The position numbers and the translations under genes are program-made. A DNA stretch of 8,528 bases, taken from Candidatus Helarchaeota ASGARD archaeon Hel_GB_B. Lineage in GTDB: Archaea; Asgardarchaeota; Lokiarchaeia; Helarchaeales; HEL-GB-B. Location of the stretch: assembly GCA_005191425.1 (NCBI GenBank), contig SUPR01000123.1, positions 1 through 8,528 on the forward strand, written 5' to 3'. How positions within the stretch are numbered: position 1 is the stretch's first letter; every line of letters begins with the position of its first letter. Below, piece after piece: positions 1 through 7,668 of this stretch. The notes under the pieces were generated by a model, which was not told the origin of the DNA, searched no databases, and saw only the letters and a program-made list of their open reading frames with translations.

Positions 1-900
1 TTTTTAGGCTTATGAGGTTCCTTTTCTTTGACTTCAGATTCTTCTTTAAAGGGAACTTTATTTTTTAAACATTTGAAAATTTCCTTTTTAGAGAGTTCTT
101 CAACACCCTTACCATTTATTGACCTAATTATTGAATCGATTTTAATCAACTGTTTAATTTCTTTTAGAATTAATTCGCCGCCCCTGTCATCATCGAAAAA
201 AACAGTGACCTTTTTTCCCTTTGCTATATCAACTATACTTTTAGGTATATTAGTACCTTCTACAGCTATAGTATTAGTAATACCGCATCGAAGTAAATTC
301 AAGACATCAGCGCGACCTTCTACAATAATGATCTCATCACTATTTTCAATGTCAGGCCCAGCTGGCAGTTTATCAGGGCCGTATTTTAATATTTCACCGG
401 ATTTTATCTCATGCAAAACTCTATTAGAAATTTCTTGACTTTCAGGTGTAACATCGGCGTCCCAATGTTTTAAGATGTCCGCTGCCCGTTGTACAATTTT
501 TCTTCTTTTTGTTTCCCTGATATCTTCAATCTGTTTCAAAGATATCCTAGCAATACATGGTCCAACCCTGTCTACCGTTTCTAATGCCGATGCAAGTATG
601 GAAGTTTCTATCCTATTTAAGCTTGATGGAATTATAATTTGACCAACGGATTTTCCATTACTTGAATCAATATTTACTTGAATTCTTCCTATGCGTCCCG
701 TTTTTTGTAATTCTCTTAAGTCTAATTCTTCTCCTAATAATCCTTCAGTCTGCCCAAATAATGCACCTACTACATCAGGCCTATATAGACCTAGTTAAGA
801 AATTCAAGATAACTAGGTTTTCTACGATGCCGTCTACTTCTATTTGGGCAGTTATAATATATTTAGTTGTGCTATAATCTTCATAATTTTTATTAGTCAA
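1..900 (-). CDS. dnaG: Archaeal DnaG (TOPRIM primase-like protein, exosome-associated), split by an intron: exon 1 = 900..820, exon 2 = 782..<1; 3' end lies outside the window
   Basis: Manual translation. Exon 1 (TTG start at 900) gives MTNKNYEDYSTTKYIITAQIEVDGIVE. Exon 2 gives RPDVVGALFGQTEGLLGEELDLRELQKTGRIGRIQV...PSSLNRIETSILASALETVDRVGPC...IIIVEGRADVLNLLRCG...VEGT...FFDDDRGGELILKE, with no stop down to position 3. These are the hallmark N-terminal and TOPRIM (EG...DxD) motifs of archaeal DnaG. An AGGTGA Shine-Dalgarno lies 6 nt upstream of the TTG. Confidence 0.95.
783..819 (-). other. 37-nt BHB-type (tRNA-endonuclease-type) intron in dnaG mRNA
   Basis: Intron RNA is AACCUAGUUAUCUUGAAUUUCUUAACUAGGUCUAUAU. 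It shows a 9-bp intron stem ACCUAGUUA/UAACUAGGU, a 4-bp central helix GUAG/CUAU and 3-nt bulges AA^A and AU^A. Removal joins GAA|AGG, giving V-E-R-P-D in frame. Confidence 0.88.
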
Positions 901-906
901 TAAATA

Positions 907-912
907 TCACCT
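907..912 (-). promoter_or_regulatory. Shine-Dalgarno site of dnaG
   Basis: AGGTGA on the minus strand, 6 nt upstream of the TTG at 900, matching the archaeal anti-SD consensus. Confidence 0.75.
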
Positions 913-7565: not shown

Positions 7566-7668
7566 TGGGCCGGGTGAGATTCGGACTCACGACCTTCGCC
7601 TCGTAAGGGCGACATCATAACCATTTATCTGCGATTTTTAGATAAAAATCGATCTAGACCACCGGCCC
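7566..7668 (-). tRNA. tRNA-Val(UAC) with a 29-nt D-loop intron; CCA not encoded
   Basis: Acceptor stem GGGCCGG/CCGGCCC plus discriminator A. Anticodon arm UCGCC-CUUACGA-GGCGA with the anticodon at 7605-7603. T arm GUGAG-UCCGAAU-CUCAC. The D arm GUCU-AGAUGGUUA-UGAU is restored after removing 7653..7625. Confidence 0.95.
7625..7653 (-). other. 29-nt BHB-type tRNA intron at about position 15/16
   Basis: Central helix GUCU/AGAU, bulges AG^A and AA^A, and intron stem CGAUUUUU/AAAAAUCG with one U-C mismatch at its base. Confidence 0.85.

Follow-up and report, generated by a model that had tools for sequence, protein, structure and literature searches.

A 37-nucleotide bulge-helix-bulge intron close to the start of dnaG in a Helarchaeales archaeon, probably spliced constitutively

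The window analysed here, which is the whole 8,528-nucleotide stretch of contig SUPR01000123.1 of Candidatus Helarchaeota archaeon Hel_GB_B, carries on its minus strand a dnaG gene that is interrupted 27 codons after its start by a 37-nt insert with the features of a tRNA-type, bulge-helix-bulge (BHB) intron (819-783). This raises the question of how a complete DnaG is obtained from such a gene, and of whether the need for splicing is used to control it. We consider that this is an ordinary, recently gained BHB intron, most likely spliced constitutively, and that the 39-residue product of the unspliced message is a functionless by-product (probability about 0.7). All that we draw on is read from sequence: the interruption and its geometry, the restored frame, the co-variation, the enzymes encoded in the genome and the distribution of the intron among relatives.

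The interrupted dnaG gene and its predicted splice sites

According to the open reading frames of the window, the TTG at 900-898 opens a minus-strand frame of 39 codons (MTNKNYEDYSTTKYIITAQIEVDGIVENLVILNFLTRSI*), which starts with MTNKNYEDYSTTKYIITAQIEVDGIVE, goes on with NLVILNFLTRSI and ends at the TAG at 783-781, while a second minus-strand frame reads RPDVVGALFGQTEGLLGEELDLRELQKTGRIGRI... from 782 downwards, over 260 codons, until both window and contig run out. The parts of the gene are:

906-912, minus strand: AGGTGAT resembling a Shine-Dalgarno sequence, 5 nt before the TTG start; the same motif precedes the TTG of the sister species
820-900, minus strand: dnaG exon 1, the TTG start and 26 further codons (27 codons), ending ...GIVE; assigned by 81% tblastn identity to the sister-genus exon 1 and by continuity with intron-less orthologs
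783-819, minus strand: 37-nt BHB intron, missing in orthologs of the order's other families and found at the same site and with the same length in the sister species
795-797, minus strand: TAA closing the exon 2 frame inside the intron, by direct reading (codon starts 782, 785 ... 797)
781-783, minus strand: TAG that ends the 39-codon frame of the unspliced message, straddling the 3' splice site and not conserved in the sister species
3-782, minus strand: dnaG exon 2, with the rest of the N-terminal domain and the TOPRIM domain, leaving the window and the contig end
537-539, minus strand: TTG, the first ATG, GTG or TTG of the exon 2 frame, 85 codons past the opening of that frame

Exon 2 alone matches the NCBIfam profile of archaeal-type DNA primase DnaG (NF003108, cut-off 300 bits) with 403.6 bits over profile positions 16-268 of 419, and also has Toprim matches in Pfam. 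As this match begins at position 16, about 15 profile positions are missing at the N-terminus, and these are supplied by the 27 codons of exon 1, against which the intron-less ortholog at locus L007 is continuous and gap-free. Only one match to dnaG exists in the genome, so the gene is single-copy. A start further upstream is excluded by the in-frame TGA at 909-907, just ahead of the TTG, and the AGGTGAT motif is presumably a match to the 3' end of the 16S rRNA. The first-pass annotation had described a 39-residue frame from TTG 900 to the TAG at 783-781, a stop of the exon 2 frame at 797-795 inside the intron and an exon 2 devoid of in-frame ATG within the window; the ORF reading, direct reading of the TAA and a 260-residue translation containing no Met agree with each of these. 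Its conclusion that full-length DnaG needs splicing is likewise probably right, given a single-copy gene whose exon 2 enters the profile at position 16 and runs for 85 codons without a start.

Translation could in principle also begin inside exon 2. No canonical start precedes TTG 539 in that frame, a weak AGGA, rich in purines, stands about 7-10 nt ahead of it, and in Sulfolobus, where DnaG is a cap subunit of the exosome, the N-terminal domain is known as a separable module that binds RNA with a preference for poly(A) (PMC4227792). The unspliced mRNA would then give, besides the short product, an N-truncated DnaG made of the TOPRIM and C-terminal domains, and the intron would set the ratio of the two isoforms. 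However, this TTG is a plain leucine codon in the conserved stretch ...ARISLKQIED..., and the Shine-Dalgarno-like match is only 4 nt long, as expected by chance, which makes internal initiation very improbable. An exosome core would fit with the three genes for RNase PH domains that the genome contains, of which two are neighbours.

On the other side of dnaG, positions 901-1362 form an unusually long and very AT-rich spacer of about 460 nt towards the divergent ORF 1363-1626. No Rfam match was obtained in this spacer, and the ORF, without a Pfam match, shares 4 nt with the Nop10 gene (1623-1817).

Around the interruption, the transcript folds into a motif with two 3-nt bulges, a central helix of 4 bp between them and a flanking helix on both sides:

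826-831, minus strand: outer BHB helix H1, 5' strand; GGC 831-829 and C826 pair with GCC 780-778 and G781
822-825, minus strand: central 4-bp helix, 5' strand GUAG (in exon 1), pairing with CUAU 788-785
819-821, minus strand: 5' 3-nt bulge AAA; cut predicted at 820|819 from the canonical rule and the in-frame junction
789-818, minus strand: inner hairpin H2 of the intron, 9 bp (818-810/797-789) with a 12-nt loop (809-798)
785-788, minus strand: central 4-bp helix, 3' strand CUAU (in the intron), pairing with GUAG 825-822
782-784, minus strand: 3' 3-nt bulge AUA; cut predicted at 783|782, after which exon 2 starts AGG CCT GAT (RPD)

The outer helix is short beside the 3' bulge, where one or two pairs are followed by a 2-nt irregularity and then by the GGC/GCC pairs. 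Cuts were placed by the canonical rule, i.e. after the second nucleotide of each bulge, and this rule was checked on the rfcS gene of the same genome. Removal of 819-783 at the canonical cuts creates the junction GAA|AGG, read as GIVE|RPDVVG, which is in frame and aligns gap-free with 16 intron-less orthologs.

Expression of the gene without any splicing has one point in its favour, as the two frames overlap openly for four codons (794-783) ahead of the TAG. A +1 frameshift between 795 and 783 would give a DnaG with 12-13 extra residues, or else the gene might be a pseudogene or an assembly artefact. The extra residues would however fall inside the most conserved motif of DnaG, gap-free in the 16 orthologs, and in the sister species no stop closes the exon 1 frame within the intron, which leaves no conserved shift site; frameshifting was thus rejected as very unlikely. 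The hypothesis of a pseudogene was rejected on account of the single copy and of two intact exons, with 81-86% protein identity to the sister species. As for the insert itself, positions 640-1000 are covered with zero indels by contigs of four public metagenome runs, which belong to four studies of hydrothermal vent and marine sediment, and the single difference found in the intron across these assemblies is a G>A SNP at 799, in the loop. Since the insert is free of indels in four independent assemblies, sequencing or assembly error was removed as an explanation. Together with a textbook BHB that brings the exons back in frame when cut at its bulges, these observations make expression without splicing extremely unlikely.

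Enzymes of the tRNA-splicing type are present in the genome, with two EndA-family genes (tRNA_int_endo, 98.6 and 75.1 bits; contigs C36 and C98) and RtcB (568.5 bits; contig C105). The two-subunit, heteromeric type of EndA has been associated with a broad substrate range (PMC5829648).

Pairing between the exons and co-variation with the sister species

Beyond the motif, exon 1 and exon 2 pair with each other through a distal helix that we call the clamp:

841-851, minus strand: clamp helix, 5' strand CTGCCCAAATA (exon 1 codons 17-20, TAQI), 11 perfect pairs with 760-750
750-760, minus strand: clamp helix, 3' strand TATTTGGGCAG (exon 2, conserved LFGQ codons), pairing with 851-841

This helix appears in both the minimum free energy and the centroid folds, and its strands are placed roughly symmetrically, about 20 nt outside either splice site. 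The sister species (locus L004), which is the only other species of the genus and has a 37-nt insert in the same codon, possesses an equal 11-bp clamp offset by one position. When the upstream 75 nt were shuffled, none of 300 shuffles reached a clamp of 11 bp, in either of the two intron-bearing species, and the best exon-exon helix in the 16 intron-less orthologs is 5-8 bp, which is the chance level. The 112-nt module formed by clamp and BHB folds at -34.5 kcal/mol (z = -3.6), and that of the sister species has the same architecture (z = -3.3). The TAQI residues encoded by the 5' strand are peculiar to this genus. The clamp is a new feature, a perfect 11-bp helix present in both intron-bearing species and absent from the 16 intron-less orthologs.

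The clamp may be the mRNA counterpart of a tRNA body or of an rRNA processing stem, presenting the BHB and holding the exons for ligation. It is not general to mRNA introns here, since no comparable clamp was found around the dnaG introns that occupy a site further downstream (GQ|TEG, see below), nor around the rfcS intron of the same genome.

Co-variation could be followed in two species, as the scans of genome and metagenome contigs contained no further copies. In the gapless alignment of the two introns, standard pairs fill 97% of the 34 pair cells, versus 18-41% in slid registers. Three of the 17 pairs (C826-G781, C829-G780 and C816-G791) show double compensatory changes, each to U-A in the sister species, and two of these three are at exon positions; a G-U pair of the central helix is in addition G-C in the sister species. 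With only two species in the alignment, the co-variation score was attained by 58 of 500 shuffles. The introns are identical at 21 of 37 positions, their differences being concentrated in the loop and in the inner stem.

These elements suggest the following course of events. The dnaG pre-mRNA would fold into a canonical helix-bulge-helix-bulge-helix kept closed by the 11-bp helix 851-841/760-750, a heteromeric endonuclease encoded by the two EndA-family genes would cut past the second nucleotide of either 3-nt bulge, and RtcB would ligate GAA|AGG into the in-frame ...DGIVE-RPDVVGALFGQTEG... The 39-residue product of messages left unspliced would be a by-product without a function.

Distribution of dnaG introns among relatives

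By contrast with the two species described above, dnaG is continuous in the order's other two families (loci L005-L009). Across the class of 161 species, only Hel_GB_B (G000) and its sister species (G001) begin to match an intron-less query at residue 22-24, and the same two are the only ones to do so among the best 150 matches listed of a phylum-wide search. Scans of genome and metagenome contigs with exon 2 retrieved only the sister species, distant relatives labelled as DPANN and one 88%-identical fragment, which lacks the 5' end. A site restricted to one genus, together with the matching clamp, points to a recent and datable gain.

A different dnaG intron exists 10 codons downstream, at GQ|TEG, in about 55 of 151 genomes of the class, or about a third; about 47 other class genomes are split near residue 30-35 and in another eight the match continues across an in-frame insert that contains stops. 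Both introns interrupt the same N-terminal domain of the same gene and are of similar size (31-38 nt at GQ|TEG), and at both sites the unspliced frame comes to a dead end, which at GQ|TEG means a stop one or two codons into the intron and a product of 34-37 aa. They differ in their site and in the absence of a clamp at GQ|TEG, their sequences are unrelated, and the GQ|TEG intron has a wider, patchy spread, even within genera g7 and g10, compared with two species for the 819-783 intron. Given this patchy distribution and the absence of an intron at the 819-783 site from most relatives, dnaG introns are readily gained and lost.

The GQ|TEG intron was located in L010, L012, L015, L018, L019, L023, L025 and L029-L032. 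Its 5' end is AGATAA or AGGTAA in nine of ten examined loci, which places a TAA two codons past the 5' splice site, and L025 has TGATAA, with a TGA that ends the frame at the first intron codon. One relative of the class (G143) carries a continuous dnaG and an interrupted dnaG on separate contigs (C40 and C91), which could correspond to a strain mixture, a contamination or a real duplication.

Constitutive splicing, regulated splicing and the other interrupted genes

A second protein-coding gene of the genome has the same layout. The rfcS gene, encoding the RFC small subunit (contig C131:8362-9354; locus L040:163-1155), is interrupted 18 codons after its start by a canonical BHB intron of 30 nt (C131:8417-8446). 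Its unspliced frame ends two codons into the intron, and the match of its exon 2 to NF001679, the equivalog profile of the RFC small subunit, starts at position 17. Both rfcS and dnaG were recovered by a genome-wide screen for BHB introns that restore a reading frame, in which a mirror-pair geometry served as decoy. Otherwise this screen returned mostly false positives, with 117 matches for the real geometry against 136 for the decoy (50,946 against 70,444 raw hits), the real geometry being mildly ahead only up to an intron length of 45 nt (32 against 20). The screen thus gives no usable intron count and no test of a bias towards 5' positions.

The first-pass annotation had proposed that dnaG might carry a splicing-gated switch loosely comparable to that of HAC1/XBP1. 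In this reading, the fraction of spliced mRNA would limit and tune the supply of DnaG, unspliced transcripts yielding only the 39-aa stub, and the tuning would come from the availability of EndA and RtcB or from ribosomes, loaded at TTG 900, that compete with the folding of clamp and BHB. Several points speak for it. Full-length DnaG would strictly require splicing; the 5' strand of the clamp and the BHB lie in translated sequence, 49-120 nt from the start, where an elongating ribosome must melt them; and both intron-bearing species use a weak TTG start, a single lineage, versus ATG in the closest intron-less loci, L005 and L007. A role as a negative regulator has moreover been proposed for the cbf5 intron (PMC2738675), and removal of the BHB intron in the 5' UTR seems to matter for the expression of Haloferax HVO_1309 (PMC7714728).

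Nothing beyond the needs of splicing was however found in the intron, the stub, the loop or the distribution. An intron length that is not a multiple of three makes a truncated unspliced product automatic; the 39-aa frame is therefore real, with no feature beyond chance. Conservation of the intron is limited to what a BHB needs and its loop varies; neither the tail of the stub nor its stop is conserved, as the unspliced frame has 39 codons here and 56 in the sister species. The intron belongs to one genus and is absent from the order's other families, and the identical layout of rfcS means that the pattern is not specific to an exosome cofactor. The TTG/ATG contrast was given no weight, since GTG and TTG starts are also common among intron-less dnaG genes of the class. 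A canonical BHB with an 11-bp clamp looks selected for efficient, not conditional, splicing. No pairing of the intron with the Shine-Dalgarno and start region is predicted in a 191-nt fold, in which it pairs only within the clamp-BHB module. A splicing-gated DnaG supply hence appears unlikely; an intron gained recently and spliced constitutively is the more probable reading. That cleavage and ligation occur, efficiently and without regulation, is what we infer for dnaG, and the word constitutive, most likely the right one, draws on the distribution of the intron and on its design; a search for public runs with this sequence listed none made from RNA.

The competition between ribosomes and BHB folding, which had also been put forward, is physically plausible but would apply to any intron inside a coding sequence. 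With the intron placed inside the translated region, 81 nt past the start codon, folding cannot wholly escape competition from translation. It is quite doubtful that the weak TTG and the clamp together leave the BHB enough time to fold and be cut before ribosomes melt it, the yield of DnaG then following ribosome loading and the capacity of EndA and RtcB. If so, the same logic would hold for rfcS, and two replication or RNA-decay factors of an Asgard archaeon would be coupled to the state of its tRNA-splicing machinery, DnaG being the RNA-binding cap subunit of the exosome and possibly a primase. A regulatory switch would matter if it were real; our analysis yielded no support for one.

HAC1 and XBP1 mRNAs are spliced without the spliceosome, a tRNA ligase (RtcB in animals) joining the exons, and this splicing shifts the frame and is required for the active protein. 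Their nuclease is the stress-activated IRE1, their splice sites are the loops of paired short stem-loops, and unspliced HAC1 is silenced by pairing between intron and leader. The predicted dnaG splicing would likewise change the frame by a non-spliceosomal route with a tRNA ligase and be needed for the product. By contrast, its predicted cuts sit in the 3-nt bulges of a BHB instead of stem-loop loops, and the leader pairing of HAC1 has no predicted equivalent, so the resemblance is one of analogy only. The KEN domain (PF06479) had no match in the genome, and equally none in any of the control genomes.

Closer comparisons come from Archaea. A BHB intron of the crenarchaeal cbf5 pre-mRNA was reportedly described by Watanabe in 2002 and is also the subject of Yokobori 2009 (PMC2738675). 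Like the dnaG intron, that of cbf5 is short, lies inside the coding sequence, uses the tRNA-splicing endonuclease and ligase in hosts with a heteromeric (alpha-beta) endonuclease, shows lineage-specific gain and loss, and is missed or mis-annotated by gene callers. The dnaG intron concerns another gene, here in the Asgard phylum, at 27 codons from the start. It possesses the 11-bp distal clamp, for which we found no counterpart described in cbf5, and its motif is canonical, whereas that of cbf5 is described as relaxed (PMC10485636). The down-regulating role suggested for the cbf5 intron remains a proposal (PMC7714728). In Hel_GB_B itself, cbf5 (TruB_N, contig C99:29403-29744) has a full-length domain match in a stop-free open frame of 333 codons, so that the classic cbf5 intron seems to be absent here. 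In Haloferax volcanii, the BHB intron of HVO_1309 is similarly a substrate of the endonuclease in an mRNA, and its removal is apparently needed for efficient expression; it lies in the untranslated leader, unlike that of dnaG, and so entails no frame break and no truncated peptide (Schwarz 2020, PMC7714728).

In the published work that we could search, endonuclease-mediated mRNA splicing has been documented in Archaea for only two genes, in the coding sequence of cbf5 and in the leader of HVO_1309 (PMC7714728, PMC10485636), and a 2023 review which counts two archaeal genes so spliced expects more (PMC10485636). Our literature search found no paper describing a dnaG intron. The introns of the essential, single-copy dnaG and of rfcS add to the case that such introns are commoner in the closest relatives of eukaryotes. 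Genes interrupted by a BHB are split or truncated by gene callers. The 819-783 site should be useful for studying how introns arrive and what an mRNA needs in order to be spliced.

The tRNA genes of the genome (3.5 Mb, 94% complete) also appear heavily interrupted, so that endonuclease and ligase must work continuously for translation. ARAGORN predicts six tRNA genes and Rfam 15 above the cut-off, nine of these 15 being longer than a compact tRNA owing to inserts, and the majority presumably escape detection because their introns are multiple or non-canonical. These interrupted genes agree with a recent preprint on tRNA introns in Asgard archaea (10.64898/2026.10.13.758758). In the window, positions 7566-7668 of the minus strand were missed by ARAGORN and reach 28 bits with Rfam, against a cut-off of 29; they probably encode a tRNA-Val(UAC), its anticodon read by eye, with acceptor arms GGGCCGG...CCGGCCC and about 29 nt inserted in the region of the D-loop.
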